From: Salinarchaeum sp. Harcht-Bsk1 | Lineage (GTDB): Archaea; Halobacteriota; Halobacteria; Halobacteriales; Salinarchaeaceae | NCBI RefSeq assembly: GCF_000403645.1 | Contig: NC_021313.1 | Location: 1,281,014 to 1,321,013, forward strand | Reading direction: 5' to 3' | DNA: 40,000 nt | Shown here: piece after piece, positions 12,027 to 34,183 of the stretch | How positions within the stretch are numbered: the stretch's first letter is position 1 | Layout: the number at the start of each line of letters is the position of its first letter | Made by a program: the position numbers and the translations under genes | The notes under the pieces: model-generated | The model's database searches: none | What the model was told of the DNA's origin: nothing | Seen by the model: only the letters and a program-made list of their open reading frames with translations

Positions 12027-12424
12027 CTGATGCGGCCTTCCTCCAGTCGTCACACGCGGCGAGTGATCGGATCATCCGCTCCAACGCAGTCCGGAACGGC
12101 CACCTCGACACACGCCGGGTCGTTTCACCGAGGCTGCTGCGGTACGCGAGGTACGGGCATCTACGGACCTTCGCGTGACGCGCGCGAACTCAGTACTGCC
12201 GATTGGGAGAACTTCTCCCTAATGGCCCGTACCACGCGTACCACCTCGGCTAGCGTACGCCGGTCGAACCTCGCTTGCGGATCGGAAACCACGCAGCACT
12301 CCGTGACCAGCTGTTTGCCGACTCCGACCACCAGCCCGTGGCCGAATGGAGCAGGGAGCATCCGAATCTCCCGCAGTGGCCTGGGTGGGAGCGGCACCCG
12401 CCACGGAGCAACTCAACGCAACTC

Positions 12425-17254: not shown

Positions 17255-17779
17255 ATGAATTTGTCATCTATCCCTACCGAATCCGGCGTATACTGTATGT
17301 TTGATCTTGACGGCGCGCCAGCTTATGCCGGACAGACCAGTAACATCAGGAGTCGATTACGACAACACTTCATACGCCAGGACTCGAGCGTTTCCAGTTA
17401 CGGTCGTCTCGATCCATGGGACATTGCCTCCGTAAGTTGGTGGACAACTGAGCGGTGCGATCCAGCGGAACAAGAATTGCTGACTACGTTCCAACCCTAT
17501 CTGAACTTCTCTGCGGAGAGCGATACACCACCGTTGTCAACCGATATCAGTCTTGATTCACCTGATGGGACCTTTGCCCTCATGTCTGATCAAGAGCAGG
17601 AGTTCCGGAGGCAGCCGTATAACCGAGTCAAACAGAAAATGGAGCACATCAACCGGATGGTAGATAAGATTAAATACGCCGATCACAGCGACGACACCCG
17701 TCGGACGCTGTACGAGCACAAACGCATTTTGGAAGAGAATCTTCAGGAATTCCTCGGTGTCGATGAGATGCCCGGGTGA
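17255..17779 (+). CDS. GIY-YIG domain nuclease
   Basis: 174 aa. GVYCMFDLDGAPAYAGQTSNIRSRLRQH matches GIY-(x9-11)-YxG with the conserved downstream Arg-x3-H/E. Starts 6 bp after the RHH gene. Confidence 0.6.
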   Translation: MNLSSIPTESGVYCMFDLDGAPAYAGQTSNIRSRLRQHFIRQDSSVSSYGRLDPWDIASVSWWTTERCDPAEQELLTTFQPYLNFSAESDTPPLSTDISLDSPDGTFALMSDQEQEFRRQPYNRVKQKMEHINRMVDKIKYADHSDDTRRTLYEHKRILEENLQEFLGVDEMPG

Positions 17780-17787: not shown

Positions 17788-19320
17788 TTACGTAACTTTG
17801 CCGTCAAGCTCGAGAACCGGAATCAATTCTGGTTCCTCACTCCCGTACTGTATCTCCCCTTTCTGGAAATCAAAGCGGATTGGCTCGCCGAGATAGGAAG
17901 TACGCTCGATTCGGGTTAGCGCGTCTAAGTCGCCGAGTTTCCAGCAGACGAACCGATCAATGTTGGAGAGCGGAGTCTCCTCCTCGAAGAAGTCGCTAAG
18001 TTTCACCTGCACGGAAGCATGTTCGTATCCATTAGCTGTATCGAGGATCGCATTGACTTCGTCATTCATCTGGAAATCAGCAATCTGGAGCGACTCCGGA
18101 GCACCATTGGCACTGTATCGTTCTAAGAGAGCTATGACCTCGGCTGGATTTGACGGCGACAGCCCGTCCGCGCCCCGGGTACGTTCTAATCGTTCCTCTA
18201 GCGAGCTTTCCTGCGACTGGATGCTCCGTTTCTTGTCCTCGAGCTTTCGGCGCTCGATGTAATCGCGATACCAGGTCTCTTGGCACACTTTAGTCATGTA
18301 TCGGTCCAGCTCGTCCGTAATGGCTTGATAGACATCCCCGGACTTATTGCGGATTTTCTCCCGGTTCGCGGAAAGTTCGAGTTCCTGGCAGTTCGCGATG
18401 AAGAAGAAGTGGAAGAACTCGTTGTCGGCTCCAATGGCATCGTTGTACCGTTCGACCTTGATGTGGTCTTTTGCAAGCCAAATGCCGAATTGTGCAGAGT
18501 GCTTCCCGTAGGTCGGCAATTTGTTCCGTGCTTCTTTCCCTCCGACCATCCCGACAATCTCGATTGTCAATTCACGGCCGTCATCGAGCGAAACGGTCAG
18601 CTCCCTCGGCGGATAGTGCTTGCACATCGCTTCAGCGACGAACTCCCCGTCCGGATCAACGTTTTCAGCAGGGAATTTCAATCGGTTATCGGTCTCGATT
18701 GGCTGCCGGGTGTCGTCGATCGTGGGAGAGAGCTCGACATTTATCTCCATCGCGTGAAAATCGTTGCTGAAGTGCCATGCCGTTGAACCGCCGATTGTCT
18801 TCCACCTGATATAATGTTCAATCTTATTATATGTGAGCTGCTGTGGGTCGAACCCTTGTCCCGCCTGAAACCCGTGGACCTCGATCCGGGTGCGTGACGG
18901 CTCGTCTACGTCCCTTCTATCAACCGAGTACGTGGGGAGTTCGCGGTTGTTGAGTTTTGCCCACGGCTGATCCATCACCGATTCGATCTGCGTCCCGTCC
19001 TTGACTGTCTCGACCTGGATCTTGTCGCTCTTGTAGTAGATTTTGGTACCGTGGCCTTTGTACCCAATCGCATCGTCTTTGTTCGAGTTTCCAAGGTCGA
19101 AGAACGACGAGAGGTTGTCTTCGTCCATTCCGTGGCCGTCGTCCTCGATGATCAAAGTGTTCCGTCCTTCATCATCCTGCTCGATTTTGATATCGACCTG
19201 CGTTGCTTTCGCATCGTAGGAATTCGACAGTGCTTCTCTGATGACTTCCAACGGGTCCTCGAAGTCGCTTGCTATCTCGATAAACTCGTTGACCTCGTTG
19301 ACTTGTGGTGTCTTATGCAT
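17788..19320 (-). CDS. GHKL (Bergerat-fold, HATPase_c_3/MORC-like) ATPase
   Basis: 510 aa. N-box EALSNSYDA, G1 box IEDDGHGM, G2 box IGYKGHGTK. Its ATG overlaps the stop of the upstream dpdA-like gene by 8 nt. Confidence 0.8.
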   Translation of the reverse strand: MHKTPQVNEVNEFIEIASDFEDPLEVIREALSNSYDAKATQVDIKIEQDDEGRNTLIIEDDGHGMDEDNLSSFFDLGNSNKDDAIGYKGHGTKIYYKSDKIQVETVKDGTQIESVMDQPWAKLNNRELPTYSVDRRDVDEPSRTRIEVHGFQAGQGFDPQQLTYNKIEHYIRWKTIGGSTAWHFSNDFHAMEINVELSPTIDDTRQPIETDNRLKFPAENVDPDGEFVAEAMCKHYPPRELTVSLDDGRELTIEIVGMVGGKEARNKLPTYGKHSAQFGIWLAKDHIKVERYNDAIGADNEFFHFFFIANCQELELSANREKIRNKSGDVYQAITDELDRYMTKVCQETWYRDYIERRKLEDKKRSIQSQESSLEERLERTRGADGLSPSNPAEVIALLERYSANGAPESLQIADFQMNDEVNAILDTANGYEHASVQVKLSDFFEEETPLSNIDRFVCWKLGDLDALTRIERTSYLGEPIRFDFQKGEIQYGSEEPELIPVLELDGKVT

Positions 19321-20563
19321 AGGTCGTGTCCGTCTCCTCGAAGTACGGGTTCATTCGTTCGTTGATCAGCTGGTAGACGAACTTGCGGAAGCCTTTCTGA
19401 TCTTTAGCGGCTTCTTCAAGGTACCCAGCGACCTGATCCTGGTCACCCTCAGCGATCAACTGGCGGAATTGACGCAACTCCCGTTGCTGGATCGCCAGAT
19501 TGTGTGCGGCGACCGAACCAAGGATGTCCTTCTGATACAGGTCGTCCATCTCGTTCCGCATCCGTGCCCGGTGGAAATCGTCGTTACAGACCCGGCAATC
19601 ACAGGCGTCGAAATCGGCCTCGTCGATTGGGACGTAATCGAACAGGCTGACGGAGTACTTGCCGTTGATCGCCTGATGCAAGTAGGAGGCGGAGTCAAAG
19701 GAGTCGGCCCCGACCGCGACGAGCAACGGCATAGCTTTCCCTGAAATCCCGAACACGTGTAGAGGGAGGTCATCGTACCCCCGTTGCTGCATCACATGCT
19801 TGCAGTCGGAGACTGCCTCGACCAGAACCTCGACGTTGTCCTTCCGTGGGACCAGGCTGCCAAGCGCGATTCCGTCGAACGCCTCAGGAATCGGTTCCGA
19901 GAGTTCGGCCTCGACCAAGTCGAAAGACCGTTCGAGCATCGCATCGTAGTAGCCGTGCACTGTCAGATAGCAGGCTCCCTCGACTTCCTCGCGCCGTTCT
20001 GCGAACCTGGCGGCATTTGCTGCGGTCTGCTCCATCTTTTCCAACCGTTCCTCGAACTCATCGTCGGGGTGAATCGGGTGGTCCAGATTGACGACGATAT
20101 CCGGACCCAGGTCCAGCTGCATATCCAACGCTTTGTCCTGGTCGATTTCTTTCTCGAAGTCTTCACCTTCGAGTCCGCCGCCCTGCTCTAGGATCTTGTA
20201 ACCACCGGAGTCCGCGAATATCATGCCGTCGTAGTCGCTGAAGCACTCCCACTCGCGAATTTCGTTGCCAAGATACCATTCCAGCTTCTTCTCTCGGATC
20301 CCATAGTCGGTCAACGAGGCGATGGAGGTCATCACGCCGCGGAACAGGTCACTGTACTCTTTACCACCAGTGACCTCGTTGTCATGAGCCAGGAATTCCT
20401 TGACTGTGCGGTGTACCCCGCCACCGAAGAGAGCGCCCTCGTTGCCGCCGCCGTAGAAGTTGATGACCGGGAATAGGTGCGGGGTTTCCAATGTCCGGTC
20501 GTTGATCTGGAGCTGGCCACGTCGAGCCTCGCCTGCCTCAGCAACAATCTCGAATGACGCCAT
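19313..20563 (-). CDS. dpdA: DpdA-like guanine transglycosylase (TGT superfamily, no RNA-binding extension)
   Basis: About 416 aa from ATG 20563 (the track ORF begins at GTG 20575). TGT motifs FADSGGYK, VAVGADSFDSASYL and the Zn site CDCRVCNDDFH. The protein ends soon after the Zn site, leaving no room for C1/C2/PUA domains. Confidence 0.75.
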   Translation of the reverse strand: MASFEIVAEAGEARRGQLQINDRTLETPHLFPVINFYGGGNEGALFGGGVHRTVKEFLAHDNEVTGGKEYSDLFRGVMTSIASLTDYGIREKKLEWYLGNEIREWECFSDYDGMIFADSGGYKILEQGGGLEGEDFEKEIDQDKALDMQLDLGPDIVVNLDHPIHPDDEFEERLEKMEQTAANAARFAERREEVEGACYLTVHGYYDAMLERSFDLVEAELSEPIPEAFDGIALGSLVPRKDNVEVLVEAVSDCKHVMQQRGYDDLPLHVFGISGKAMPLLVAVGADSFDSASYLHQAINGKYSVSLFDYVPIDEADFDACDCRVCNDDFHRARMRNEMDDLYQKDILGSVAAHNLAIQQRELRQFRQLIAEGDQDQVAGYLEEAAKDQKGFRKFVYQLINERMNPYFEETDTTYA

Positions 20564-20567
20564 ACTG

Positions 20568-21029
20568 TCAGTCACCGTGTACCGGATCTGGTCGACCGCT
20601 AGACACCAAGTGCTTCAACCGCTTGCCCTTCATCCCAATACCACAGCCCTCGATATAGTGGACCGGAATATCAACAGCAGCCTCGATCCCGTCAACAGCC
20701 GGCAGATAATCCGCTCCCAGATTGACCCACACTTTGTCATACTCATTCCCAGCGACTTTCTCCGCAATTTCCCCGACCACCTCGTCGTTCAATTCGTTAG
20801 CACGGTCTGTGTCCATCTGACGATCATAATATCCGATCTTATCATCGGTTTCAACGACTCCATGCTCAGCAGATATAATAATCATGTCAAGTCCAGGTTG
20901 AAACTGGTCCGCGCGCAGCGCCTTCTTGATGATTCTAAAGAAGTATCCATCGTACAAATCGAGGGCAGGCACCGGTGTATCCACCGATTCCTTTGTCGCG
21001 GAACATGATTGGACTAATAGTGACGTCAT
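20568..21029 (-). CDS. small protein with N-terminal CSxxK motif (stand-alone ArcS-C1/DUF5591-like or DUF6884-like domain?)
   Basis: 153 aa. LLVQSCSATKESV...ALDLYDGYFF resembles the strand-CSxxK start of the C-terminal domain of the neighbouring 636-aa protein (LLILPCSQEKPY). The family assignment is from memory only. Confidence 0.45.
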   Translation of the reverse strand: MTSLLVQSCSATKESVDTPVPALDLYDGYFFRIIKKALRADQFQPGLDMIIISAEHGVVETDDKIGYYDRQMDTDRANELNDEVVGEIAEKVAGNEYDKVWVNLGADYLPAVDGIEAAVDIPVHYIEGCGIGMKGKRLKHLVSSGRPDPVHGD

Positions 21030-21105: not shown

Positions 21106-23016
21106 TTACAACGAGGTGGTAAATCGTTCCACAAGCTCGTCGATATTCTCGCCACGGAAATGCTCGGTCAGCTGAAGGGCTCGCGGGTTGGACGGGAATA
21201 TCTCACCTCGGCCATATCGGGTGAATGCCTGGTCGATAGCTCGGCGATACGCTTTGCTCGTCGTGTAGGCCAAGATGTGGTCAAACTGTTCACCGAATCG
21301 GTCCAGGTACTGGGCGAGCCGGTTCGCAACGAGTTCGACTTGATCATCGTCCGCAGTGGTGAGGACATACTCGTAGCTCATTACAGGGTCCGCCTCCTCG
21401 AACTCCTCTGGCACAGGACCGTACAACCCTGAGAGGGATATCTTGTGGAACTGGTCCCGATACTCTTCAATCGGGGAGAGCACTGCCTGATGTGTCCGCG
21501 AGTCGGAGTAGGGCTTCTCCTGGCTGCACGGCAGAATTAGGAGGACATCAGCCTCAGATGGTGGCTGGTAGCCATCCTGCTGGAGAATGTTGAAATCGTT
21601 AGGACCGTGCTCCAATGAGATGGTCCGTTTCTCCCGTGTCGTGTCTTCAACCCCCTCGAGGAAGCCGGAGAGTTTAGTTTGGAACGTTCCAGCGTCCGGT
21701 CCCGCAACGAGTTCCTCGTAGCCGATGTCGGCCAACTGTTCGCGGAGCTCCGGGTTGTGGAGCTGTGCCCGCTTCAGCCCTTTCTCGACGATGTTCTTCC
21801 CCTGGGCGAACTCCGCCACGAGTTCGAGCAGTTCGTCGTTATCGATGGCGTCCCGCACAGCCTGCATCTGGCGACTGTACAATTCGAAGTTGTGCTGGGC
21901 TATCTGTGCGTAGTATTCGCTCTTGAAACGCTTCCCGTGCTCCCCCTCGATACGTTTGTAGCTGACATCGGACTCTAGAAGGGCGTGCCGCATATCGGCG
22001 AAGTAGATGTTCTGGCATGCCTGACAATCGCAGTACTCCTCGTCCCAGTCGCTCAACTTGGTCCGCTGCCACGTCTCCGGGTGGATGAAGCTCTTGTTCC
22101 GGGCTGCTTTCAAGTAGTTCGAGGAGTCGAACGTGTCGACGCCGAGGAGGGAGAGTAGCGGACAGAGCCGGCCGCTGATGCCGAACACGTGGAGTGCGAT
22201 GTCATCGTACCGTTCCTCCGGTATCGCATCCCTCGCACCTTGGACGATGTCGACGAGGACGTCCGGTGAGTTGCTGAGCGGGACAAGTGATCCGAGCGCA
22301 AAGCCCTCAAACGCTTCATCCAGTTCCTCAGCCCGGTCCAGAAATCGGCTCACGTACCAATTGACGTCCTCGTAGCTGTGGCCGTGAATCGCCACGTAGA
22401 CGGATGGGGACTTGTCGACACCCCATTCCTCGAGCTTCTCATCGTCATTGAGCAGCTGTAGACATTCGACTGCGTTATCGATACTCCGCTTCATTCGCTC
22501 GGTGGCTTCCGCCTTGTTCAGGTTCTGAGGAATCGGGAAGTCCAAGGTGGCGACGATGTCAGCACCATAATCCAGCTGCAGCTTCAGAATGCTCTCCGGA
22601 TTCGTGTAGATGCCCCAGTCGTTCTCGCTCCCACCTTCTTCCGGCGGCTGGCCGAATGTCGTCGAGTTCATCAGCTTGAATCCGCCGGAATCGACAAACA
22701 ATGGCTGCGTGAACCCGGGTTCGGCATCGCTCTCCTCGAAGTGCTGCTTCAGCGGTTTCTCCCGCCACTCCACCAGGTTGTCCGGGGTGAGATTGTAGTC
22801 GAGAAACGTCATCGTCTGGAACATGAATCCCTGGACAGTGTCGCTCTGGAAGAGATAGCGCCGCGTATACCGCCAGATGCCACCTGATTCTGGGGTGGTT
22901 CCTCCGATAAGATTCGCAACTGGGAGAAGGGCAGGTGTCTGAATCTGGCCGGCAGGCGTGTCTATCTCGCCCCGCCGACCGTATCTGGCCTTTGCGAGCG
23001 TCCTGAATGGAGGCAT
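21106..23016 (-). CDS. TGT-catalytic-domain protein fused to an ArcS-type C1 domain (archaeosine-synthase-like), apparently PUA-less
   Basis: 636 aa from ATG 23016. N-terminal half: FVDSGGFK, LLGVDTFDSSNYL, Zn site CDCQACQ...RH. C-terminal half: LPCSQEKPYSDSRTH at 21490..21531, an exact match to the ArcS signature PC-x3-KPY-x2-S-x2-H. Only about 127 aa follow the motif. Confidence 0.75.
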   Translation of the reverse strand: MPPFRTLAKARYGRRGEIDTPAGQIQTPALLPVANLIGGTTPESGGIWRYTRRYLFQSDTVQGFMFQTMTFLDYNLTPDNLVEWREKPLKQHFEESDAEPGFTQPLFVDSGGFKLMNSTTFGQPPEEGGSENDWGIYTNPESILKLQLDYGADIVATLDFPIPQNLNKAEATERMKRSIDNAVECLQLLNDDEKLEEWGVDKSPSVYVAIHGHSYEDVNWYVSRFLDRAEELDEAFEGFALGSLVPLSNSPDVLVDIVQGARDAIPEERYDDIALHVFGISGRLCPLLSLLGVDTFDSSNYLKAARNKSFIHPETWQRTKLSDWDEEYCDCQACQNIYFADMRHALLESDVSYKRIEGEHGKRFKSEYYAQIAQHNFELYSRQMQAVRDAIDNDELLELVAEFAQGKNIVEKGLKRAQLHNPELREQLADIGYEELVAGPDAGTFQTKLSGFLEGVEDTTREKRTISLEHGPNDFNILQQDGYQPPSEADVLLILPCSQEKPYSDSRTHQAVLSPIEEYRDQFHKISLSGLYGPVPEEFEEADPVMSYEYVLTTADDDQVELVANRLAQYLDRFGEQFDHILAYTTSKAYRRAIDQAFTRYGRGEIFPSNPRALQLTEHFRGENIDELVERFTTSL

Positions 23017-23294
23017 CAAAGAACCTGTGTAGTAACTCTATGCGACACCTCAATTAACCTCTCGCTCCAGAAAGCGTAAAAATTCTATCAATACTGAGAT
23101 GCCGATGGAGCCGATATGTCAGTAAACGCTGCCACTCAAAGCGAACTGGAAAGGCGCACCAGCAACCGTGACGATGACCGACAACACTGGAGACAACACT
23201 GTTGGGTCTGTATCGGGCGTTACAAATAGCGCCACAGCGACTTTCCAGGGGTTCCGGAAGCAGATACAGAAGAAACTGGATGCACGGGAAGGTT

Positions 23295-23915: not shown

Positions 23916-24004
23916 CAAGTATGTTCAACTGACATGCACTAAATGTATGAACGTTGGTGACCGGGAGGGTTACTCGCCGTTTGTAACATTTTGACGGAGA
24001 GAGG

Positions 24005-24697
24005 TCATCCAAGCCGAATTTCAAGGTAGTTAGCGAGGTTTGACCCGGTTAGTGCCTCACGTTCCTCCTCGGAGAGGTCGTTGAAGCAAGGCGGTTCATC
24101 CGACAGCAGTTGGTCCATCACGTCTTCAAGGGTGGTGCCGCTGTAGCTGCCGAGCAAATCTTTCTGGACCTGTTGCAGGGCGTTAGACATGGTGGCTGCA
24201 ACGTCGCGGGCTTCCTGTTGTTTCGCCTCGAATGACTCCTCGGCTTCGTCAGTATAGACCTGGGCTTTCCAGTTCCAGTCGTCGAGCAGCGACTCGAGTG
24301 CATTGAGTTTACCCATGTCAGCGGCCTCGACGTGCTCGTTCAATTTCCGCATCGCTCTGACACGGTCTCTTTCCTCAGTACGTTCTTCGTGGATCTTGTT
24401 CTCAATCTGGTGGGCTTCCTGGCTGACCTGGTCCTCGACATTGTCGATAATATCGTCCAAGGCATCGAAATCACGTTCGTCGGCGTACCCACCCGCCTCT
24501 TGGACTTTCTCCTTGGCTTCATCAACGACCTTGACCTCCAGATCGAGGAAGTCTCGCGCGATGATCGCTTGTAGCATAGTTTCCTCCATCTCGGTAGCTA
24601 CCTTCTCTAATCGATCCTCCAAGTCCCGCCGGAGGTACTGTTGGTGGACCGTCTCGAGTTCCTGCTCGAATAGAGACTGATCACTGGTCTCCGACAT
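24005..24697 (-). CDS. acidic coiled-coil protein, unknown function
   Basis: 230 aa with heptad-like E/K/Q/L-rich sequence throughout. Its ATG overlaps the stop of the 997-aa gene by 17 nt. Confidence 0.55.
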   Translation of the reverse strand: MSETSDQSLFEQELETVHQQYLRRDLEDRLEKVATEMEETMLQAIIARDFLDLEVKVVDEAKEKVQEAGGYADERDFDALDDIIDNVEDQVSQEAHQIENKIHEERTEERDRVRAMRKLNEHVEAADMGKLNALESLLDDWNWKAQVYTDEAEESFEAKQQEARDVAATMSNALQQVQKDLLGSYSGTTLEDVMDQLLSDEPPCFNDLSEEEREALTGSNLANYLEIRLG

Positions 24698-27674
24698 AGT
24701 ACTGACTCACCTCCTGAAAATACGGGGCAAAGGAAGACGACGATTCCTCTGTCTCGAAATCGATTTCGTTGAACGACTCGATAACCTCGTGCTCGATAAG
24801 TTTGTACTCGACCAGCATTTTGTGGATCGCGTCCTGTGTCGACGTGCCTAAGGTGTCGAGACATAGCCGGCTGGCAGCGACCACCTCGTCCACCTCGGCC
24901 TGGCTATACGAATCAAACTGTAGTAGCGACTCGTACAACGAGCGGTCCACCTCGTAGTTATCCAAGACGTCGACATTGTCGTGGATCCGCTCCATATCGA
25001 TACCTCCCAGTTCATTTTGAGCCGTCCGGGCCGTCGTGTAATCCTGTATCTGGTCTTCCTGCTGATCCAGTGACTTCTGCATCCGATACGCCTTGGTCAC
25101 CATCTCGACCAGTTTCGTGTCGGAATCAAACCGGACACGCGAGCTCAATCCCTCCGGGTCAGCACGGAGTCGGCTCAACACGTCCTGTGGCTCATTATTG
25201 GAGAACCACCGACGGAGACGGGGGAGATCCAATGTGGTGTCATTAATGGCATGACGCTCTGCGACAAGTGCATCGAACGCCTCCGCATACTCCATGAACT
25301 CCTGAATGTGATCCAGTGCTTCAGGAGCCAGTTCCTCGGTCAGTGCTGTCTCTAATGTCGTGTCCAAGGCGTAGTCTTCACCGCTGGCGAACCGCTCGTT
25401 CAAGGTTGGTGCCGTCACCTCTTGCCACGGATCGTCCAGCACGACGATCCAGGCATATGCTGCTAGGACGTAGTCGTCGAATCCGTACGGTGGATCGTAC
25501 TTGTAGTAGACCGAGGTGTCCTCGATATACTGCTCCCTGACTTTGGCCCGCCACTGCCGGGCATACTCCGTCAACTGGCCACCGACCAACGTGAGGACCC
25601 GTTGCTCGTCAGCGCTGGCATCCGCCTCGTCTATTCGGATCCCGTATTTCAGTAGTTCGCGGATATCAGACCGCTGAAAATCCTGTGGACCAAGCACGAT
25701 TTGGCCCGGAGCAGGCGATGATTCAGCAGAGGGGTATACGAACGGGTCATCCGACCGGCTGAGGTTGTACCTGAGATCGCAGTCCGTCCACAGCGAGTAA
25801 TCCTGCGTCAACGTATTGATGAGGTCGGCAAATGCAGTTCGCAGGTAAGTGTCCGTCTCGACGTATGATTCGTCCTGCGGGTTGGCGTACCAGTTGTCCA
25901 CGTAGCCGCTCTGCTCGTTGATGAGGCGCTCGATACGACTCAACCCTCCGCCATCACCGCCTCCTTCAGTTTCCTCATCGTCTCCACCTGTCTCCTCCTC
26001 GTCTTCGCCGGTTTCACCCGGCTCCGTCTCTTCATCATTTGGTGGAATATACTCGACACCGGGAATCTTGACGTGATCATCCAGCAATTCGATGTTTGCC
26101 GGAAGCTCGTCCGCTGCCGGGTTCTCGGGGAGCAGCCCGAATGCTTCGAGGAAGGCCCGGTCAACGGCGATGTATTCGTCGTATCGGTCGGTATCGCCGT
26201 ACCATTTGGCGACGTGGGCGAAGACTTCGGCTTCCTGGTAGACGTCGTCGTGGGCTGCGACCCGGTTTGTCACATGGTTCAGCGGGCTTGCCGTGGCGGG
26301 ACACGTGGCTGTCCCGTTGAAGTATTCGAGCACGGTCTCGAAGACGACGATGATCAGTTCACGAGGGGACTGCTCGCTCTCATCAAGGCCGGTGTAGATC
26401 CGTTCGATAAACTGCTGGTTGAAGGGGAACAGGTCGCGGAAGCTGTCGTCGCACAGTCCACACCTTGCGCACAGGGAGTCCGGCTCCGGGTCCAGCAAGG
26501 TGAAGTCGCCGGCGTCACGGTCGTAGCGGACGCTGCCATCGTGGTGCTTGATGTAGCCGAGGTACGGACGGATGAAGTCAACAGCCGTCTCGTCGTCAAG
26601 AAAGAGGACCTGGTTGGAGTTCTGTTTGTTCGTCCGGTAGAACCGGAACCGGTCCTCAGCAGTCCGTTTGTGGAGGATGGCCGTTGAATCACGGGTGCCA
26701 GCGACGATGAAATCCCAGTTATCACCGGGGTTGTCGCGTTCCATGAAGTTGCGGAGCTGCCGCGCCTGCATCCCTGTGATCGAGAAGTCCTCGAAGACAG
26801 CGACCGGCCGTTTGTCACCGTATTCCTCTTTGAATTTCTCACCGACTTCTTCCAGCAGATCCGTCAACGGTGGGGTATCGTACTGGTCGAGTAGTGCCTG
26901 CCAGAACCCGCTGCTCAGTTTCTCCGCTGGATGCCCCTCGAAGGCGTCGGCGCCCTCGTCGAAGACCTGCAGGTAGCTATTCTGTTCGTATTCTTGCTCG
27001 GTCACCAAGTTCGGTTCATCGCCGTACTGCCGAGGCTCGACTAATCGGTCGCGGATCCGTTCCGCCACGAATTCGACGATAGCGTCCTCTTGGTCCGGTG
27101 TCGTCGAGGTAGCATAGCCGTCCCATCCAATCTCCAGCAACGCAGTGTAGACGGCCTGGCTTGCGACCATCCGCGGCCGCTGTTTGATATCATCTTCAAG
27201 CCGCTTGAACCGGGACGAGGTCTCCAACGTCTCGTCGAAGTGGTCCTGGTAGAAGTCCGGGATGTCCTCGGTCAGCATCGACATTAAGTCCGTGTCTTTG
27301 TTGACGCGGAGGATCGGACGGTCAGCGTCGTTCTCTAATCGGTGGTTGAGCGCAACGCAGAGTTCCGATTTCCCGGTTCCGACCTCGCCCTCGATGACGA
27401 CGGCGAAGTTCTTGTTGCGGCTTCCGGAGAAATCCTGGTAGACATCGTCCTCCGTGACGACTCGTTCCTCATCGGTTTCCAGCGATGGGCCTTCGACACC
27501 GCCTTCGATCTGGAAGAGTTCGATCGGGCGATGGGTAAACCAGAACAGGTCCGGATTCTCGGCGCGGACGGCAGCAACCCGGCTGAACAGGCTACGCAGG
27601 TCGGACTCGTCCTTTTCGTGGAAGTGTGGGCAAAACAGATCGTCGGGAGAGGAGGATGCAGTTTCGCTACTCAT
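24681..27674 (-). CDS. large P-loop NTPase, unknown family
   Basis: 997 aa. Walker A VVIEGEVGTGKSELC near residue 100 and candidate Walker B RPVAVFEDFS near residue 290. An acidic low-complexity linker (EETEPGETGEDEEETGGDDEETEGGGDGGG) is followed by a long alpha-rich C-terminal half. ATGA overlap with the upstream gene. Confidence 0.7.
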   Translation of the reverse strand: MSSETASSSPDDLFCPHFHEKDESDLRSLFSRVAAVRAENPDLFWFTHRPIELFQIEGGVEGPSLETDEERVVTEDDVYQDFSGSRNKNFAVVIEGEVGTGKSELCVALNHRLENDADRPILRVNKDTDLMSMLTEDIPDFYQDHFDETLETSSRFKRLEDDIKQRPRMVASQAVYTALLEIGWDGYATSTTPDQEDAIVEFVAERIRDRLVEPRQYGDEPNLVTEQEYEQNSYLQVFDEGADAFEGHPAEKLSSGFWQALLDQYDTPPLTDLLEEVGEKFKEEYGDKRPVAVFEDFSITGMQARQLRNFMERDNPGDNWDFIVAGTRDSTAILHKRTAEDRFRFYRTNKQNSNQVLFLDDETAVDFIRPYLGYIKHHDGSVRYDRDAGDFTLLDPEPDSLCARCGLCDDSFRDLFPFNQQFIERIYTGLDESEQSPRELIIVVFETVLEYFNGTATCPATASPLNHVTNRVAAHDDVYQEAEVFAHVAKWYGDTDRYDEYIAVDRAFLEAFGLLPENPAADELPANIELLDDHVKIPGVEYIPPNDEETEPGETGEDEEETGGDDEETEGGGDGGGLSRIERLINEQSGYVDNWYANPQDESYVETDTYLRTAFADLINTLTQDYSLWTDCDLRYNLSRSDDPFVYPSAESSPAPGQIVLGPQDFQRSDIRELLKYGIRIDEADASADEQRVLTLVGGQLTEYARQWRAKVREQYIEDTSVYYKYDPPYGFDDYVLAAYAWIVVLDDPWQEVTAPTLNERFASGEDYALDTTLETALTEELAPEALDHIQEFMEYAEAFDALVAERHAINDTTLDLPRLRRWFSNNEPQDVLSRLRADPEGLSSRVRFDSDTKLVEMVTKAYRMQKSLDQQEDQIQDYTTARTAQNELGGIDMERIHDNVDVLDNYEVDRSLYESLLQFDSYSQAEVDEVVAASRLCLDTLGTSTQDAIHKMLVEYKLIEHEVIESFNEIDFETEESSSSFAPYFQEVSQYYVGDQ

Positions 27675-28519
27675 GACGTGATAACGATGGAGTTCGCCGA
27701 TTGTTCGCGGCGGTCGTGCGTCGGCATCCGGTCAAAGGCGACAGCACCTTGATCACCGATCTCTGCCAGGCGGATCCGTTCCTCGTTCATCAGTTGGTAG
27801 AGAGAACGGCTGAGGATGGCAGGCACACCGCCAGTGTCTTCTGGAAGGTAGAGCAGGTTGTTCGACAGCCAATCCAGATACGTCGGTACCTCGATGACGG
27901 GGTTGCCGTCGACCGTTCGGCCAGCGGCGTTATGTGCCCGTTTGATCGAGTGGTAGATGAGCGACGGGTCGGGGTAGACGGTGAACTCGTGCGTTTCATA
28001 CTGGTGGAGCAGGCCAAGGTAAGTGGCGAGGCGGCCCCAGTTTTCCATCTTGTTCGGGTTCAGGTCGAGCCGGTCACCACGGTACGTCGGGTAGTACTCC
28101 AAGGTGTCGCGTTCCCAGCGGTCCATCTGCTTCCTGACCGCTTCGTCTTTGTCGTTAATCCGCTGGTAGTCTTCCTTGATGAGGTACGCGTAGTTCAAGT
28201 GGAGGACGGCTTGCTTCCCCCAATCAGGCGGTGTAAGAGATGACGCAAGATTTTCTAACGCGGTCAACTGGAAGTCCAGTATCTCATCGCCCGTCGACCA
28301 CGTGTAGTCACGGACGGTGTACTCTTCGTCTTTGGAATCAAGCAGCCCTAACCGCAGTAACCCCTTTGCTCCTTCATCAACGGCATCAGCACTCAGCCCG
28401 GTATCGTCGACAATTTCATCCTCAGTCGTATTGCCGCGGTTGACTGATTCGTAGACCGGTTTGAGTGACCTGGGATTCTGGATGGTGTTGAGAAGATATC
28501 CCTGGTCAGGATCTGTCAT
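27671..28519 (-). CDS. hypothetical protein (possible N-terminal winged helix)
   Basis: About 282 aa from ATG 28519, which gives a TAATG overlap with the upstream stop (the track ORF starts at GTG 28540). TTEDEIVDDTGLSADAVDEGAKGLLRLGLL looks HTH-like. No family recognised. Confidence 0.5.
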   Translation of the reverse strand: MTDPDQGYLLNTIQNPRSLKPVYESVNRGNTTEDEIVDDTGLSADAVDEGAKGLLRLGLLDSKDEEYTVRDYTWSTGDEILDFQLTALENLASSLTPPDWGKQAVLHLNYAYLIKEDYQRINDKDEAVRKQMDRWERDTLEYYPTYRGDRLDLNPNKMENWGRLATYLGLLHQYETHEFTVYPDPSLIYHSIKRAHNAAGRTVDGNPVIEVPTYLDWLSNNLLYLPEDTGGVPAILSRSLYQLMNEERIRLAEIGDQGAVAFDRMPTHDRREQSANSIVITS

Positions 28520-29415
28520 TATGGACTCCGTTGTAGCCACGCTTTGTAAGTTTGCCCTAGAGGAGTCGAATCGAGGTTACGTGCTTCGCGCCGCGCATCG
28601 CTCATCGACGCATCTTGGGCGACAGCGGCTGGATCGAATGCACGCGTGTTGTCCGCAACCGTAGAATTCAGAGAACGTACCACTCTCATCGCTGTCGAGG
28701 AGTCCCATTCGATACGGCGGCGCAGCCACGAGGCCAGGTTCTGCAACGCGTCATCTTTCTTGGGGCTGGTGCCAGGCCCGTCGTGGCTTTGGAAAGCAGC
28801 TGCAATCGCGTCGTACAGTGGGAGATACGGTGCATCGTTCAACAGCGAGAAGAGTTCGGTCGTCTGTGTCACGGTTTCACCGGCTACACGTTCATACAGG
28901 ATGGCGTTGTCTTGGAGGAAGACGTTCTGTGTGTCGGTAAGCGGGAAATCGAAGCCCTGGTCGTTGTACCACTGGTTCAAGGCATCATACACATCGTCAT
29001 AGGGGCGTTGTGCGATGGCGAAGGGTTCGTGGTAGAGCGGGCGCAGACCTTGCTGGGTTTGGAACTGTTTCTCATCCGCAACGACGACCATCGTCCCCAT
29101 CTCCTGCCATCGGTTGATCAGGCCGCCGATCGAATGCTGCGTTTCATCCTCGTAGTACTGCGTCGTCAAGGCCGCCAACATTTGCTCCTCGTACTCGATG
29201 TTCTGGAGCAAACTGTACTCATAGGAGAACAAGCCCCGTCCATCGCCGCTCTGAAGCTGCCGCCACCTCCAGGGATATGTGAATTCTTCTATACCAAGCC
29301 GATTGAGCGCTGGCAGACAGCGGAGAAGCCCAAACTGTGACCGTTGCTCAGTCGTGTCGTGGATGAGAAACACGCCCTGCTTAGAGAGGAACGATTGGAG
29401 CGTCTCCCACTTCAT
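28519..29415 (-). CDS. hypothetical protein
   Basis: 298-aa ORF with ATG start, 37 bp downstream of helicase 1 and coupled to the next gene. No motif recognised. Confidence 0.5.
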   Translation of the reverse strand: MKWETLQSFLSKQGVFLIHDTTEQRSQFGLLRCLPALNRLGIEEFTYPWRWRQLQSGDGRGLFSYEYSLLQNIEYEEQMLAALTTQYYEDETQHSIGGLINRWQEMGTMVVVADEKQFQTQQGLRPLYHEPFAIAQRPYDDVYDALNQWYNDQGFDFPLTDTQNVFLQDNAILYERVAGETVTQTTELFSLLNDAPYLPLYDAIAAAFQSHDGPGTSPKKDDALQNLASWLRRRIEWDSSTAMRVVRSLNSTVADNTRAFDPAAVAQDASMSDARREARNLDSTPLGQTYKAWLQRSP

Positions 29416-29452
29416 CGATACTGCCTCATCATCTGTAACTGGGGAACAACGG

Positions 29453-32400
29453 TCATGGCGTTTGTCCTACTGCCTCCGCGAGCAGCGTCCTGTTCAGCAG
29501 GTCGTTGTCCAGATACGTAGCTGGTGTCCGCTCGATCAAGAGACAGTTCTCACAATAGCCGCTACATTCGTCACAATCAATCACGTTTCGGACCTCGTCG
29601 ACGATAGCGTCCAAGTGTCGGTCGACCTGTGTCGCAATCCCGTTGCCACCCTGCCGATTATCGACGATGTAGACGCGAATCTCGTCGCCCGTCGCCGTCA
29701 CCTTCACGCGGAAATCGTCTTGATCACTCTGGGTTTCGACGGCAACCGCTTTCGTTAACGCTTGTTCTAAGCTGATGAACAGTTGGGGCCACACTGCCTC
29801 GTCTTCCTGTTCCAACGCCTCATCCGGAAGTCGATCAGCCACCGCTGCCTGGTCGAACGTGAGACAGATCCCCTGTGTTACGTACTGCTTCCCGACAGGC
29901 GCGTACCGGGCATCGTCGCTGTCAGGAATCCGTGCTTCAGACCGTTTGATCTCTTTCCCGGATCCCATCGTGTGCCGCCGCTCGAATACCGGGATAAAGT
30001 CAATCACATCGTAGCCGCCGACCGCTACGTCACAGGAGAGGCCGAATACCGTGGTTTCTTCGCCTGCGGTTCTTTCGCCACGACTCGTGACGTGGGTCGT
30101 CATGATGGGCGAGGTACTGTATAAATCTTCGAACTGGTGGGCTTTCCGACAGTTGACTGCCTGAACGCCGTGGACTGAAATCGCATCTAACGGGTTGCCG
30201 CAGTGTGGACATTGCTCTGCTGCTGTCCGGTAGCTTTCGAACGGCCGGGTACAGTCCTCGTTGGTGCAAATCGCCACCGTCTGTAACGGTTCCTTCGTGC
30301 CTTCGACGTCCGACACCAAGTAGGTTGAGCCGTACAGGGTCATCACTGCCCCTCGCTCATTTTCCTCACCAGGGTAGAAGTCGTAGAGGCGGCCGTCACC
30401 TTGGAACGAGATGCTTTCACTGCTGCCTTCGAACTGGACAGGGAACTGTTGGCCGAACTCGCGATAGTTCGCCAAGTAGCCCAGTCGGTTGAGCCAGGAA
30501 TCCAATCGGTCATTCCCGTTTCGCACGTCGTCGAGATCGGTGCTGTCACTGAAGCTGCGGAACTGGCCACAGGTTTGCTGTGTCCGTTGCCGGAAACTCA
30601 CCGGGCCGTCACTGTTGAAAACCGCGTCGAAGACCTCCAAACCACGTTGCCCGAACACGGCCCCGATATGGTCCCGTAACCGGTCCGTCACGTCGTCGCG
30701 GACAAAGGTGCGTAGCTCGTCAAGGTTGGCTTCCACACGGTCGGCGAACTCGGCCACAGAGTCGACCGACTGATTAATCTGGTAGGTCTCCTCGAACGTG
30801 TCACTGGGATGCGGGTTGCGGGCGAGATAGGCGACGACTTCGGTCACTACGTGGCCGGCCAGGACTTCGTCGAAGTCGAACGGGTCCGGAACACGGACAG
30901 GGTCGAAGCTGCCGAAGAAGCGATCCAGGTCGTCGTAGTAGTGTGCGTCGACAGGATGGGTGCCGCGGACCGTGGTGGCTACCAAGGATTCGCTGCCGCG
31001 CGTCCGCCCGGTGCGGCCGCTGCGTTGCACGTAGTTAGTCAAAGTCGGCGGTATCCCGACCTGTGCCACTGAATCCAAGGTGCCGATGTCCACACCGAGT
31101 TCCATCGTCGGAGTCGCGCTGACGATGTTGATGTCCGGATCTGATTTCCGGAACCCCTCCTCAATGGCGCTCCGAAGTGTCGGTGGGACGTCCCCCTTGT
31201 GGATTCCTACCGTGATGAAGTCCAACTCCATCATCTCGACCGTGTCGCGCGGTACCGGTGGCCCTTCACTCGGGATGAGAGGCGCAAGGATATCGTGGCC
31301 CCAGTGATCGACCGGGTACTCCCAGTCTGTCTCGACGTCTGCCCAGCCGAGGAGGGTCATTGAGCCGTCGTCCTCGACACGGAACCGTTGGTGGACGTCG
31401 ACCGTATTTCCGCAGGTCGGGCAATGGTCAAGGCCGTCATCGTGACGGGGAACAGGTGACGCCGTGTAACAGTCGTTGCAGAACGTTACCTGGGGAACCA
31501 GTTGGAGGTCCGTCTTACTCGCGTAGTCGTGGACGGTGAAGATACCGCCGCCGACATCACTATAGCCGTCACGTGCTTCCAGACCGTCAATTTGGTCTTC
31601 GATGTACTCGAAGACATCGTCCTCAGTTGCTTCATCCTTCCCCGCGTTGAGTATCGTGTCCCGTACGCCATCCCACGTTTTGAGTTCAAACACGTCGCCG
31701 TCTAGCAACCCCTGCAACACGTCGTCGACAACCTCGTCGATTTCCTCTTCGGTGAATCGTGTCTCAGACTCGAGCTTGTTGACCAACCGCTCCCGGGTGT
31801 ATCCCTGGAACTTGATTCCGTGTTTCTGGAACTGGGGCGGGAACCGGCTGACGAAGAGATTGAACACCTCGTGGCCGATTGCCGCGGTCTTCGGATCGGG
31901 ACAGGTGTGGACCCATGCAGGGGTGACAAGCGCTGCTTCACGGAGATGCTGGCACTGGGAGAGCCGTGCGTTCGGCTCGATTTCGTTCCACAGCTCAACG
32001 AGAATATCGTTCGCATCCGTTTCCCGGTCCGGTGTGTTCTGTCGCAGTGGCTGCCAGTACTTCTCCCGCAGTGTATCCAATACCGGGTAAAACAGTGACC
32101 GGGCCTCAGCTCGGCCACCTTCCTCGATCAACTGCTTCACGTACAGCGTCTCAGCGGTTAACCCGTACTCCGTCCCGATGATTTCGTTGCTGACCGATTC
32201 AGCTGTCGACCGTGAATCAGAGAAGACCAACGTCTTCTCGGACGGCATCGACCGGCACAGCGACGTCAACATGAACGAAAGCAGGGTCGGCGTCGGCACC
32301 GTGATATCGGTCAACCGGAGCCGCAACGTCGTACAGCCAGGACACGGACCGTCCGTCCCGCCGCCGTAGACCGGTTGAAACACCTCGTCGTCCTCGTCTT

Positions 32401-34183
32401 CGTTTTCGGTGTCGGCTTCGACGAACGGGTGGTGGCAGGTCCTGCAGAACCGGAGTTCCCGTGTCTGGTGGCCCTCGGGACAGGACCGGCCACGGGTCAC
32501 TTCCTCGCATGTCTGGCACCAGTAGACCTTCCGCGGCGGTTTGGCGAACATGTGGTACTTCGCCGTCACCATCCCGGCTGCCCGGCCCAAGGCAAGCAAT
32601 GCTGACACCGCTTCATCCGGGTTCGACGCACCTGCTTTCTCAATCCGGTTCACGAGGTCAGCGTAGTGTTCGAACTCAACCTCGGTGGTCGACTCGTCCA
32701 TGAACCACGATGCAACAGTCGCGACTTCCGGAACCGTATCACGGATAAACTGGAACCATCTGCCGCCGAGATCGCCGTGCTCGACCACCTGTTCCGTCAA
32801 GGTATCCAGTTCCTCGGGGGCTATCCCGGGCGCAGTCCCTCCGTTCTGGACAGCTCCCGCGGTGTTGTCTTCCTGTTCGGTGTCGATGCTGTCAGCTATG
32901 GGGGCGAACACCCAGTCTCGGTGCTGGTCTGGCACCGTCAACGGGTCTGGCCCTGCCAAGAGTCCAATCTCCTCCAACGTGGTGACGGCACCGGTCAACT
33001 GTGGATAGCTGCCGCAGAACGTCTCCCGGTCAACGTCGTGGCGTTCGGTGAGGACGAGTGTTTCCACGACGTCGCGGAGTGAACACTCCGCAAACCGGTC
33101 GAAATCAGTCGCCCCGGTGACCGGGAAGTCGCGGGCGGTGAACCCGAGCTCGTTGACATCGTCTCTATCCGTCCCGGTCAGGGCGGATGCCAGGTCGCTG
33201 GGGTTCTCGATGGTGGCGGAGACCAGCGTAACCTGTGGATCATGTGCTGCGTAAAACTGTTTGAGACGGCGAGTGAGCAATCCGATACTTGACCCGGATA
33301 TCCCGCTCCACACGTGGGCTTCGTCGAAAACCACGTGTTGAACTGGGCTTTTCTCCGGGCCTTGACCTAGGATATCACGGGTGGCCTCGTTGTCGCTGAC
33401 GAACATATAGTCGAGCGCATCCGGGTTCGTCAGGAGGATGTCGACCCCGTCACGGATCTGCTCGCGAGTGATCTTGAGCCACGGATACGTCCAGTCATCG
33501 CTGCCCGGTGTCCCATCGCTGGTCACCCGTAAATCGTCCTGGGTGCGGGGACACTCGAGGCCACGGACGTTGGCACCGATATCCAGGTCGTAGTCACGCG
33601 GTCCGACTGCCGCCGGCGTATCCCGGTCCCAGATCCCGATGGTAACGCGGTCTTCGCGTGGTAGTTCCTGGTTCACCGTGTCAATGTAACGGAGGAACCG
33701 ATTGAGCTGGTCGACACCCAGCGTCTTCATCGGATAAATGACGATCGCTTTCAACCCGTTGTCGTCCGTCGCCACACAGTCATTGAGTACTGGGAGGAAG
33801 AACGACTCCGTTTTCCCGGTCGCTGTCGGCACAGCCAAGATGTTGTCGTCAGGATCCGTCTCGATAGCCTCGATCGTGTCTACCTGGTGCTGATAGAGCG
33901 ACCCGGCACGGTCCCCACCGAACAACTCGTCGACGACCGCGTCGACAACCCGTTCATCGTAGCCATACTGCTCCAGTAGCTCGGCAGCTGGCCGCTCCGC
34001 TGTGGCTGGCGGTGAGACAAATTCGAGATACGGGCCTTTGGTATCCACCAGTTCGTTTGAAACGAAGGAAGTAGCGTTGGTAACGCCTGAAATACGGTTG
34101 AGCTTGGTAAGTTTTCGATTCCACCACGTGATCTCGGAGGCGCGATCAGTGGCGGTGGCAAACGCGTTCAACGGGGATGGCAT
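29453..34183 (-). CDS. giant SF2 DEAH-type helicase with Zn-ribbon insertions and a DUF1998 (MrfA/DrmB-type Zn-binding)-like C-terminus
   Basis: 1576 aa. Motifs in order: LYQHQ (Q), AVPTATGKTE (I), VIYPMKTLGVDQ (Ia), ILLTNPDAL (Ib), VVFDEAHVW (II), LVSATIENP (III), TLVFSDSRS (IV), VSATPTMELGVDIG (V), YVQRSGRTGR (VI). Inserted ribbons CQTC..C..H, CRTC, CPGC, CNDC..CPTC, CTNEDC..CPHC. C-terminus DNRQGGNGIA...CDECSGYCENC. Confidence 0.85.
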   Translation of the reverse strand: MPSPLNAFATATDRASEITWWNRKLTKLNRISGVTNATSFVSNELVDTKGPYLEFVSPPATAERPAAELLEQYGYDERVVDAVVDELFGGDRAGSLYQHQVDTIEAIETDPDDNILAVPTATGKTESFFLPVLNDCVATDDNGLKAIVIYPMKTLGVDQLNRFLRYIDTVNQELPREDRVTIGIWDRDTPAAVGPRDYDLDIGANVRGLECPRTQDDLRVTSDGTPGSDDWTYPWLKITREQIRDGVDILLTNPDALDYMFVSDNEATRDILGQGPEKSPVQHVVFDEAHVWSGISGSSIGLLTRRLKQFYAAHDPQVTLVSATIENPSDLASALTGTDRDDVNELGFTARDFPVTGATDFDRFAECSLRDVVETLVLTERHDVDRETFCGSYPQLTGAVTTLEEIGLLAGPDPLTVPDQHRDWVFAPIADSIDTEQEDNTAGAVQNGGTAPGIAPEELDTLTEQVVEHGDLGGRWFQFIRDTVPEVATVASWFMDESTTEVEFEHYADLVNRIEKAGASNPDEAVSALLALGRAAGMVTAKYHMFAKPPRKVYWCQTCEEVTRGRSCPEGHQTRELRFCRTCHHPFVEADTENEDEDDEVFQPVYGGGTDGPCPGCTTLRLRLTDITVPTPTLLSFMLTSLCRSMPSEKTLVFSDSRSTAESVSNEIIGTEYGLTAETLYVKQLIEEGGRAEARSLFYPVLDTLREKYWQPLRQNTPDRETDANDILVELWNEIEPNARLSQCQHLREAALVTPAWVHTCPDPKTAAIGHEVFNLFVSRFPPQFQKHGIKFQGYTRERLVNKLESETRFTEEEIDEVVDDVLQGLLDGDVFELKTWDGVRDTILNAGKDEATEDDVFEYIEDQIDGLEARDGYSDVGGGIFTVHDYASKTDLQLVPQVTFCNDCYTASPVPRHDDGLDHCPTCGNTVDVHQRFRVEDDGSMTLLGWADVETDWEYPVDHWGHDILAPLIPSEGPPVPRDTVEMMELDFITVGIHKGDVPPTLRSAIEEGFRKSDPDINIVSATPTMELGVDIGTLDSVAQVGIPPTLTNYVQRSGRTGRTRGSESLVATTVRGTHPVDAHYYDDLDRFFGSFDPVRVPDPFDFDEVLAGHVVTEVVAYLARNPHPSDTFEETYQINQSVDSVAEFADRVEANLDELRTFVRDDVTDRLRDHIGAVFGQRGLEVFDAVFNSDGPVSFRQRTQQTCGQFRSFSDSTDLDDVRNGNDRLDSWLNRLGYLANYREFGQQFPVQFEGSSESISFQGDGRLYDFYPGEENERGAVMTLYGSTYLVSDVEGTKEPLQTVAICTNEDCTRPFESYRTAAEQCPHCGNPLDAISVHGVQAVNCRKAHQFEDLYSTSPIMTTHVTSRGERTAGEETTVFGLSCDVAVGGYDVIDFIPVFERRHTMGSGKEIKRSEARIPDSDDARYAPVGKQYVTQGICLTFDQAAVADRLPDEALEQEDEAVWPQLFISLEQALTKAVAVETQSDQDDFRVKVTATGDEIRVYIVDNRQGGNGIATQVDRHLDAIVDEVRNVIDCDECSGYCENCLLIERTPATYLDNDLLNRTLLAEAVGQTP

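Follow-up and report, generated by a model that had tools for sequence, protein, structure and literature searches.

A MORC-like GHKL ATPase coupled to an archaeal transglycosylase as a candidate functional stand-in for DpdB in a Dpd-like island of Salinarchaeum

In bacterial Dpd systems, DpdA needs the ATPase activity of DpdB for the insertion of preQ0 into DNA in vitro, and the role of ATP in this reaction is an open question (PMC10164549). In bacterial genomes, dpdA comes together with DpdB in 92% of cases (PMC5699537), and DpdB was modeled as a ParB-like, nucleotide-gated dimer whose closed state encircles DNA (PMC10164549). Its ATPase activity is stimulated in bacteria by DpdA-DNA. Which protein could take this part in an archaeon? 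The question is raised by a stretch of 40,000 nt from Salinarchaeum sp. Harcht-Bsk1 (NC_021313.1, positions 1,281,014 to 1,321,013; in the following called the window), which, judged by its gene families, holds a Dpd-like island with its own preQ0 synthesis pathway. Within this island, a gene of the transglycosylase (TGT) family is directly followed on the minus strand by a gene for a GHKL ATPase (17788..19320, starting with ATG; L593_06085 by exact protein match to the NCBI record). A sequence-only reading of the window had suggested that this ATPase replaces DpdB by supplying a DNA-opening step. The comparison presented here leads us to a similar answer, held with slightly better than even confidence: the GHKL protein is a non-homologous functional stand-in for DpdB, for which DNA opening would be one possibility among several. 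This functional claim rests entirely on comparative genomics.

The earlier description of a 510 amino acid (aa) protein with Bergerat boxes is borne out by the open reading frame (ORF), the positions of the motifs EALSNSYDA (aa 29–37), DDGHGM (aa 60–65) and GYKGHGTK (aa 86–93), the Pfam matches (HATPase_c_3, E 1.8e-15; HATPase_c, E 4.9e-10) and the invariance of the residues concerned. All GHKL superfamily motifs I to IV (ExxxNxxD, DxGxG, GxxGxG and a conserved Thr) are present in the Bergerat ATP-binding domain of approximately aa 1–160 (18841..19320, minus strand), namely E29/N33/D36, D60-G62-G64, G86-G89-G91-T92-K93 and T144. Each of these residues is invariant in 85/85 haloarchaeal and 44/44 distant homologs. 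An S5-type transducer domain follows at about aa 161–328 (18337..18840, minus strand; approximate boundary); when its invariant residues K284 and R320, the latter in an ELSANRE loop, are included, fourteen ATPase and transducer residues are invariant in 129/129 sequences. Two long helices at aa 329–383 (18172..18336, minus strand; helices 329–346 and 349–383 according to DSSP on the AlphaFold2 model) form a predicted coiled-coil linker. The C-terminal domain (aa 385–510; 17791..18168, minus strand) shows an alpha-beta-beta-beta-alpha-beta topology and appears, based on the AlphaFold2 model and hhalign, to be a degenerate PD-(D/E)xK-like domain.

Sequence searches with the GHKL protein reached MutL and MORC2 structures, the MORC2 sequence match being marginal (E 0.02). 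The AlphaFold2 model of the protein, with a predicted local distance difference test score (pLDDT) of 76.7, was used for Foldseek searches. The top matches were the ATPase modules of MORC3, MORC4 and MORC2 over ~400 columns at E ~1e-12, and further matches comprised MutL LN40, Hsp90, SMCHD1 and GyrB; the MORC3/4/2 and MutL LN40 matches range from E 4e-13 to 1e-10. As far as the model shows, the protein has a MORC/MutL-type GHKL + S5 architecture, with the MORC likeness lying at the fold level. We detected neither a CW nor a TIR nor an active nuclease domain in it.

The link to the upstream TGT gene is tight. The stop codon of the latter and the start codon of the GHKL gene share the 8 nt at 19313-19320, ATGCATAA, just as the sequence-only reading had stated; the junction reads ...ACC TAT GCA TAA in one frame and ATG CAT AAG in the other. 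Because the homologs align from residue 1, we consider this ATG the true start. Equal stoichiometry of the two proteins might be expected from the overlap only by analogy.

This arrangement is widespread. Close homologs of the GHKL protein (>270, ~510–530 aa) are found in Halobacteria and Nanohaloarchaea and fall into two clades with 69–89% and ~50–57% identity to the window protein. A genome scan from the GHKL side, allowing one genome per species, yielded 33 halo- and nanohaloarchaeal loci in addition to 47 distant ones. The order DUF6884 → TGT → GHKL, adjacent and on one strand, was detected by tblastn in 33/33 of these haloarchaeal-type genomes, representing ~20 genera and 49–89% identity. 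Where TGT ends and GHKL begins, the genes overlap by 8, 4 or 1 nt or are separated by a gap of 0–9 nt, except in one or two loci. The ArcS-like, Que, helicase, PLD and unannotated genes are variably present in these 33 loci, with shuffled positions and orientations. In a second scan, starting from the TGT side in metagenomes, we obtained 80 loci. In 70 of them, 300 nt or more follow the TGT gene, and 78 have upstream sequence: GHKL adjoins TGT in 68/70, and DUF6884 is adjacent upstream in 74/78. Two further complete genomes contain the DUF6884-TGT-GHKL core as well. The pairing thus extends far beyond the window, with its coupling conserved. A haloarchaeal-type pair was also noticed on a 5-kb contig filed as Streptomyces sanglieri (P0080 / P0232; GCM10009647_059540, _059550), its GHKL and TGT proteins being 54% and 46% identical to those of the window; this is probably an assembly contamination.

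If the GHKL protein stands in for DpdB, DpdB itself should be missing, and the sequence-only reading had seen none. As reference we chose the canonical dpd cluster on the Enterobacter cloacae plasmid pPOL9A and built a DpdB profile from 117 sequences. Scans with Pfam, PADLOC and NCBIfam returned no ParB, DndB or DGQHR protein among the island proteins, the other ORFs of the window and the recurrent unlabeled families of 110 related loci, the latter covered over 6–10 kb on each side of the gene. The unfiltered DpdB profile, run on the six-frame translated window and on 2803 ORFs from the related loci, gave a best E-value of 1.2 (positive control, E 5e-187). Comparing DpdB with every island family by hhalign, we obtained probabilities of ≤0.8%, and 0.3% for GHKL. 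A DpdB hidden among the proteins p207, p230, p289, p298 and p997 was rejected by the profile and profile-profile searches. Hence the window as a whole, and the island under these sensitive searches, appear free of a DpdB homolog. The hypothesis of the sequence-only reading thus withstood the two refuting conditions it had named that sequence comparison can address, a lack of co-occurrence beyond this locus and a DpdB homolog in the island.

In pPOL9A (L166:26666-29965), a 283-aa ORF, dpdA and dpdB follow one another on one strand, the latter two with a 4-nt overlap. The archaeal module shows the same order and coupling, with the GHKL gene in the dpdB position. Because it sits exactly where bacteria encode the unrelated DpdB, the GHKL protein probably replaces it.

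To understand where such a protein may have come from, we looked at its more distant homologs (47 loci, 27–38% identity, 543–585 aa), which occur in Bacteria, Methanophagales, Pacearchaeota and Thermoplasmata. The family is small: a search of 1.84 billion proteins gave 465 representatives at E ≤ 1e-3. None of the distant homologs had a TGT neighbor, nor did neighbor clustering reveal a conserved one, and Pfam annotation of 136 neighbors returned only scattered restriction-modification (R-M) and defense genes. Approximately 8/46 sit at most two genes from a DNA methyltransferase; others lie among integrases, HNH, DEAD or caspase genes. Distant relatives with an intact nuclease motif adjoin differing R-M genes at three loci (L040:8481-12324; L034:6954-11623; L046:274-6361). 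In a Pacearchaeota metagenome-assembled genome (MAG), a distant relative is flanked by an N6/N4 methylase and a BsaWI-type restriction endonuclease, in a Dehalococcoidia MAG another is placed after an Eco57I-type methylase, and one more lies before a type I S subunit. Because these relatives adjoin such varied R-M genes, the parent family is apparently an R-M accessory or effector. A viral anti-restriction origin of the halo-type module was rejected: no phage record matches GHKL. In IMG/VR, only three distant matches were found, with 23–27% identity.

The C-terminal domain separates the TGT-linked proteins from these relatives. Modeled alone, it reached a pLDDT of 88; there was no significant match among the PDB folds (best YaeQ, E 0.13), profile searches of the PDB with the C-terminal domains found nothing, and neither the window GHKL nor its distant relatives matched DUF4263 in Pfam scans. 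The domains of the window clade and of the stand-alone relatives are homologous (hhalign probability 93.6%, E 2e-7). The distant proteins show an invariant E...GxD...ExK, with a conserved His and then a CW motif after it, which corresponds to a PD-(D/E)xK signature. Its D site is occupied by D in 44/44 distant sequences versus N 43, H 17, T 10, D 7 and A 3 among the 85 TGT-linked ones; its E site by E in 44/44 versus S 45, A 35, T 3 and no E; and its K site by K in 36/44 versus H 50, Q 14, S 7 and no K. The window protein has N at the D site and neither E nor K at the ExK site. With the D/E/K triad replaced and the ATPase residues invariant, the TGT-linked GHKL can therefore be regarded as a nuclease-site-degenerate derivative of a GHKL-nuclease-like family.

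The 46 distant homologs without a conserved neighbor also invite another view, namely that the GHKL gene is an autonomous defense or selfish gene hitch-hiking beside TGT. A GIY-YIG protein (174 aa; 17255..17779, plus strand; Pfam GIY-YIG, E 2.9e-6), which we count as accessory and outside the core, might then be its nuclease in trans; otherwise it may be a homing-type selfish gene or a restriction accessory. In the window, the GIY-YIG and GHKL genes are convergent, with 8 nt between their stop codons, and a GIY-YIG gene likewise lies close to the GHKL stop in several other loci. Even so, we judge this view quite improbable, given the near-complete adjacency of GHKL and TGT (33/33 and 68/70) across 50% divergence with start/stop coupling kept. 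GIY-YIG homologs were found in only 9/33 related genome loci, at variable positions, either the same as in the window or elsewhere in the island, and the lost nuclease-like triad argues against an autonomous effector.

We then considered the partner. The TGT protein (in the following called TGT420; 19313..20575, minus strand; 420 aa from a GTG or 416 aa from an ATG start; Pfam TGT, E 1.9e-29) had been described as DpdA-like, which did not hold in the sense of orthology to the bacterial enzyme. It scored 27.3 bits against the NCBIfam DpdA model (NF041059; cut-off 200), and its closest PDB relative is the archaeal arcTGT 1iq8 (E 4.9e-21); no bDpdA structure was among its PDB sequence matches. 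With E. cloacae DpdA, hhalign gave a probability of 70% over 110 columns. The DSGG Asp D122, D165, D291/D294 and the zinc ligands C325/C327/C330/H358 do not vary among 16 members of the family and have aligned counterparts in arcTGT, while the C1, C2 and PUA tRNA-binding domains are missing. By sequence, TGT420 is a catalytic-domain-only derivative of archaeal arcTGT and not an orthologue of bacterial DpdA. We predict that it is a DNA guanine transglycosylase and thus a functional analog of DpdA, with preQ0 as the presumed inserted base.

Upstream of TGT420 lies the gene of a DpdC-like DUF6884 protein (153 aa; 20568..21029, minus strand; Pfam DUF6884, E 1e-11; PADLOC DpdC, E 3e-5), whose stop codon overlaps the GTG start of TGT420 by 8 nt. 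The DUF6884 family matched the ORF upstream of E. cloacae dpdA with an hhalign probability of 80% (E 1.5e-5); that ORF is annotated only as hypothetical, and the archaeal DUF6884 proteins have about half its length. Next comes an ArcS-like protein with TGT and DUF5591/C1 domains (TGT637, 637 aa; 21106..23019, minus strand; Pfam TGT, E 1.5e-30; DUF5591, E 8.8e-19), found in 29/33 genome loci. Its match to NCBIfam ArcS (116 bits) is below the cut-off of 440. It possesses the full TGT catalytic set (DSGG, GVDTFDS, CDCQAC) and the ArcS C1 motif PCSQEKPYSDSRTH, without PUA domain, which suggests that inserted preQ0 is turned on DNA into a base of the archaeosine type, either dG+ or a lysine adduct. 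With the DpdC-like DUF6884 beside TGT637, the island encodes two distinct tailoring routes next to each other.

Since TGT420 is closest to arcTGT and TGT637 closest to ArcS, the module might instead act on tRNA or other RNA as a paralogous archaeosine pathway, with the GHKL protein assisting the TGT enzymes as an Hsp90-like chaperone or in their assembly rather than working on DNA; Hsp90 structures are indeed among the fold matches. Of all the explanations considered, this one strikes us as the most far-fetched. Both TGT paralogues lack PUA and C-terminal tRNA-binding domains, the genes belong to a lower-GC island with DpdJ/K-like genes and its own preQ0 pathway, the distribution is patchy with one copy on a plasmid, and MORC and MutL, which gave the best fold matches, act on DNA.

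The island just mentioned spans from ~14 kb to ~39 kb and has a GC content of 0.50–0.60 in a high-GC genome (~0.68). Read along the minus strand, with coordinates descending, it contains the genes of a 1576-aa helicase, p298/p289, p997, p230/p207, TGT637, DUF6884, TGT420 and GHKL. After GHKL follow the convergent GIY-YIG gene and then, again on the minus strand, QueD (16478-16939; Pfam PTPS, E 4.8e-21), QueE (15702 to ~16460; Radical_SAM, E 1.5e-18), FolE (15093-15701; GTP_cyclohydroI, E 9e-51) and QueC (14410-15096; QueC, E 2e-71). A restriction-type module at 24005..34183 (minus strand; PADLOC, Pfam) comprises p230, p997, p289, p298 and the 1576-aa DEAD/Helicase_C/MZB helicase, which is DruE/DpdJ-like according to PADLOC; p997 is a weak DpdH match (PADLOC, E 1e-6). 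A DpdJ-like helicase of 1387 aa (PADLOC DpdJ, E 2.3e-52; phmmer with E. cloacae DpdJ, E 2.9e-27) and a DpdK-like PLD nuclease of 171 aa (PADLOC DpdK, E 1.9e-14) are encoded at 34370..38948 (plus strand). Measured by the Dpd definition set of PADLOC and NCBIfam, DpdJ and DpdK are clear, DpdH and DpdC weak and DpdA below cut-off; DpdB, DpdD, DpdE, DpdF, DpdG and DpdI were not found in the island by PADLOC, NCBIfam and profile scans. The assignment of p230, p289 and p298 as bacterial DpdD/G/I was rejected, no similarity being seen.

The presence of two superfamily II (SFII) helicases and a PLD nuclease directs attention to a further alternative, in which the GHKL protein serves the restriction or surveillance side, or restrains it on self DNA, and its adjacency to TGT only matches a reader to its writer. 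There is precedent: Iyer et al. (2008) found MORC/paraMORC genes mainly in R-M operons together with SFII helicases and nucleases and proposed DNA looping between recognition and cleavage sites (PMC2292703). The DNA methyltransferases and the BsaWI-type restriction endonuclease adjoining distant GHKL relatives fit this alternative as well.

If it were correct, GHKL should be inherited with the restriction genes. Instead, its identity to the window protein tracks that of TGT420 (r 0.98, n 94), DUF6884 (0.95) and TGT637 (0.98), but shows no such relation to the Que genes or to the restriction-type genes, for which r lies between −0.4 and −0.55; these r values are driven by two clades, so that the actual finding is concordant clade membership. 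In two loci (L018, L026), restriction-type genes 71–95% identical to those of the window lie beside a GHKL/TGT/DUF6884/ArcS-like module of 41–55% identity, from which we conclude that the two halves of the island recombine as independent cassettes. Moreover, among 28 loci whose flanks are complete, 8 are free of window-type restriction genes over 10 kb, and GHKL is kept in all of them. Together, these three observations indicate that GHKL travels with the modification genes, whereas restriction partners swap freely. The overlap of TGT and GHKL is fixed, in contrast to the variable placement and orientation of the restriction genes, and GHKL occupies the dpdB slot. A role on the restriction side is therefore unlikely in our view, although we give it more weight than the other alternatives.

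The reading of GHKL as a stand-in for DpdB is thus supported by synteny, gene coupling, co-inheritance with the modification genes, the missing DpdB, the position in the dpdB slot, the kept ATPase combined with a lost nuclease-like site, and the fold. Several points weigh against it. An ATPase helper is not a given, because phage DpdA1-4 insert bases without any ATPase (PMC6884629, PMC10516641); these were described without a DpdB-type partner, and the archaeal-virus DpdA4 (DUF6610) is a separate family (PMC10516641). The prokaryotic MORC/paraMORC proteins for which a role has been proposed were placed on the restriction side, with SFII helicases and nucleases (PMC2292703), and both kinds of genes are present in the island. 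DNA as substrate of TGT420 is deduced only from the context and the lack of a PUA domain. That the ancestral C-terminal domain was a nuclease is read from motif and topology, the Pfam matches being sub-threshold (NOV_C, E 0.036; HSDR_N_2, E 0.06). Finally, the TGT proteins that come closest to the clade without belonging to it (L158 and L159; 35–36% identity) pair with a helicase and not with GHKL.

At these two loci (L158:396-5404 and L159:2439-9209), which are the two exceptions among the 70 of the TGT-side scan and hold its most divergent TGT genes, TGT is directly followed by a DEAD + MZB helicase, which in L159 is fused to a PLD domain; no GHKL, DUF6884 or DpdB was found there. They may represent a compact two-gene variant of Dpd-like systems in which the helicase may be the ATPase partner. 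In the searchable literature, which leaves most subscription journals uncovered, we found no report linking GHKL/MORC proteins to DpdA and none of a cellular archaeal dpd cluster.

Combining these considerations, we propose the following scenario for GHKL as the replacement of DpdB. The protein would have descended from stand-alone GHKL + PD-(D/E)xK-like proteins of R-M or defense contexts, keeping the ATPase and losing the triad. Together with TGT420, DUF6884, the ArcS-like enzyme and the preQ0 genes, it would constitute the modification half of a Dpd-like 7-deazaguanine R-M island. It most likely is a dimeric, ATP-gated DNA clamp: on binding ATP it would close on DNA, and in the closed state load the transglycosylase onto double-stranded DNA, or position or activate it there, with the dead nuclease-like domain possibly acting as a DNA-recognition or anchoring module and ATP hydrolysis resetting the clamp. 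The scenario predicts a physical TGT-GHKL complex, an ATP dependence of the modification and a role of GHKL in clamping or target recognition; the clade-specific conserved residues PSNxAEV and CWxxGDxD are candidates for the interface of the complex. More tentatively, and with a little less than even confidence, we suggest that these loci make up an archaeal class of its own among the 7-deazaguanine DNA modification systems, in which the ATPase cofactor has been replaced, without homology, by a MORC-like clamp exapted from a GHKL-nuclease defense protein and the dead domain serves target recognition.

Some further features of the surroundings were noted. The island is bordered on its left by genes for a zinc-ribbon tyrosine integrase (5876-7177), a PrimPol/D5-helicase protein (9333-12026) and a protein resembling the large terminase (12609-14246). 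These elements (5876-14246) are an integrated mobile element or a provirus remnant; the window has no tRNA gene that could mark an integration site. Between the ArcS-like and the restriction-type genes lies a 207-aa ORF (23295-23918, minus strand) with a hydrophobic N-terminal half, probably encoding a membrane protein, for which neither family matches nor homologs in the related loci were detected. Another ORF, of 414 aa, recurs in 19 related loci and is not present in the window; in the representative locus (L143:6744-7988, minus strand) it is located directly downstream of GHKL in convergent orientation and has no Pfam or PADLOC match.

In >100 archaeal loci, a DNA-type TGT would be firmly tied to an independent ATPase of unrelated structure, which would offer a natural second example for studying the role of ATP, and features common to DpdB and GHKL, such as nucleotide-gated closure around DNA, likely point to the essential function. 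If the proposal is true, cellular DNA transglycosylases, unlike viral ones, would generally need a DNA clamp gated by nucleoside triphosphates, and such clamps, whether ParB-like, GHKL or perhaps SFII helicases of the L158/L159 kind, would be interchangeable. A defense nuclease turned into a nuclease-dead accessory factor would also be a clear case of exaptation, and a concrete, testable biochemical role is suggested for a prokaryotic MORC-type ATPase. Halophile genetics in Haloferax or Halorubrum hosts, combined with liquid chromatography-tandem mass spectrometry of DNA, make the hypothesis directly testable.

How does this module compare with known systems? With DpdB of Salmonella Montevideo (PMC10164549) it shares an ATPase gene directly downstream of the transglycosylase gene with overlapping stop and start, in the order DpdC-like-TGT-ATPase. 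Both ATPases belong to nucleotide-hydrolyzing families, and the three-gene modification module is part of an island that also carries DpdJ/K-like genes. From what is generally known of the family, we take GHKL to be, like DpdB, a nucleotide-gated dimer able to encircle DNA. The two differ in that GHKL is without sequence or profile similarity to DpdB, being of the Bergerat GHKL + S5 type rather than ParB-like (DGQHR/DGQQR, DndB PF14072), bears the degenerate PD-(D/E)xK-like C-terminal domain and has an arcTGT-derived partner instead of bDpdA.

Like MORC/paraMORC proteins, MORC2/3/4 and the MutL N-terminal domain, the window GHKL has a GHKL + S5 module with all catalytic motifs and an extension beyond S5. 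It also lies, as do the MORC/paraMORC genes of R-M systems, in a mobile R-M/defense context, but it is linked to a base-exchanging transglycosylase and not to methylases, helicases or nucleases. paraMORC3 and the GHKL-Shedu proteins (VcSduA, PMC12137116) resemble it in their N-terminal GHKL, middle clamp-like region and C-terminal PD-(D/E)xK-type domain, a layout shared, with intact E...D...ExK, by the stand-alone relatives of the window protein (27–38% identity). In contrast to them, there is no DUF4263 match, and the window clade has lost D/E/K and is not stand-alone. On the transglycosylase side, TGT420 shares the catalytic Asp residues and the zinc site with arcTGT, ArcS, DpdA1-4 and bDpdA, and the island encodes the preQ0 pathway and the ArcS C1 motif; unlike arcTGT and ArcS, its TGT proteins are devoid of PUA and C-terminal tRNA-binding domains. 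What appears to be new is the combination: an archaeal Dpd-like system with an arcTGT-derived transglycosylase and, instead of the ParB-like DpdB, a nuclease-dead MORC-like GHKL protein.

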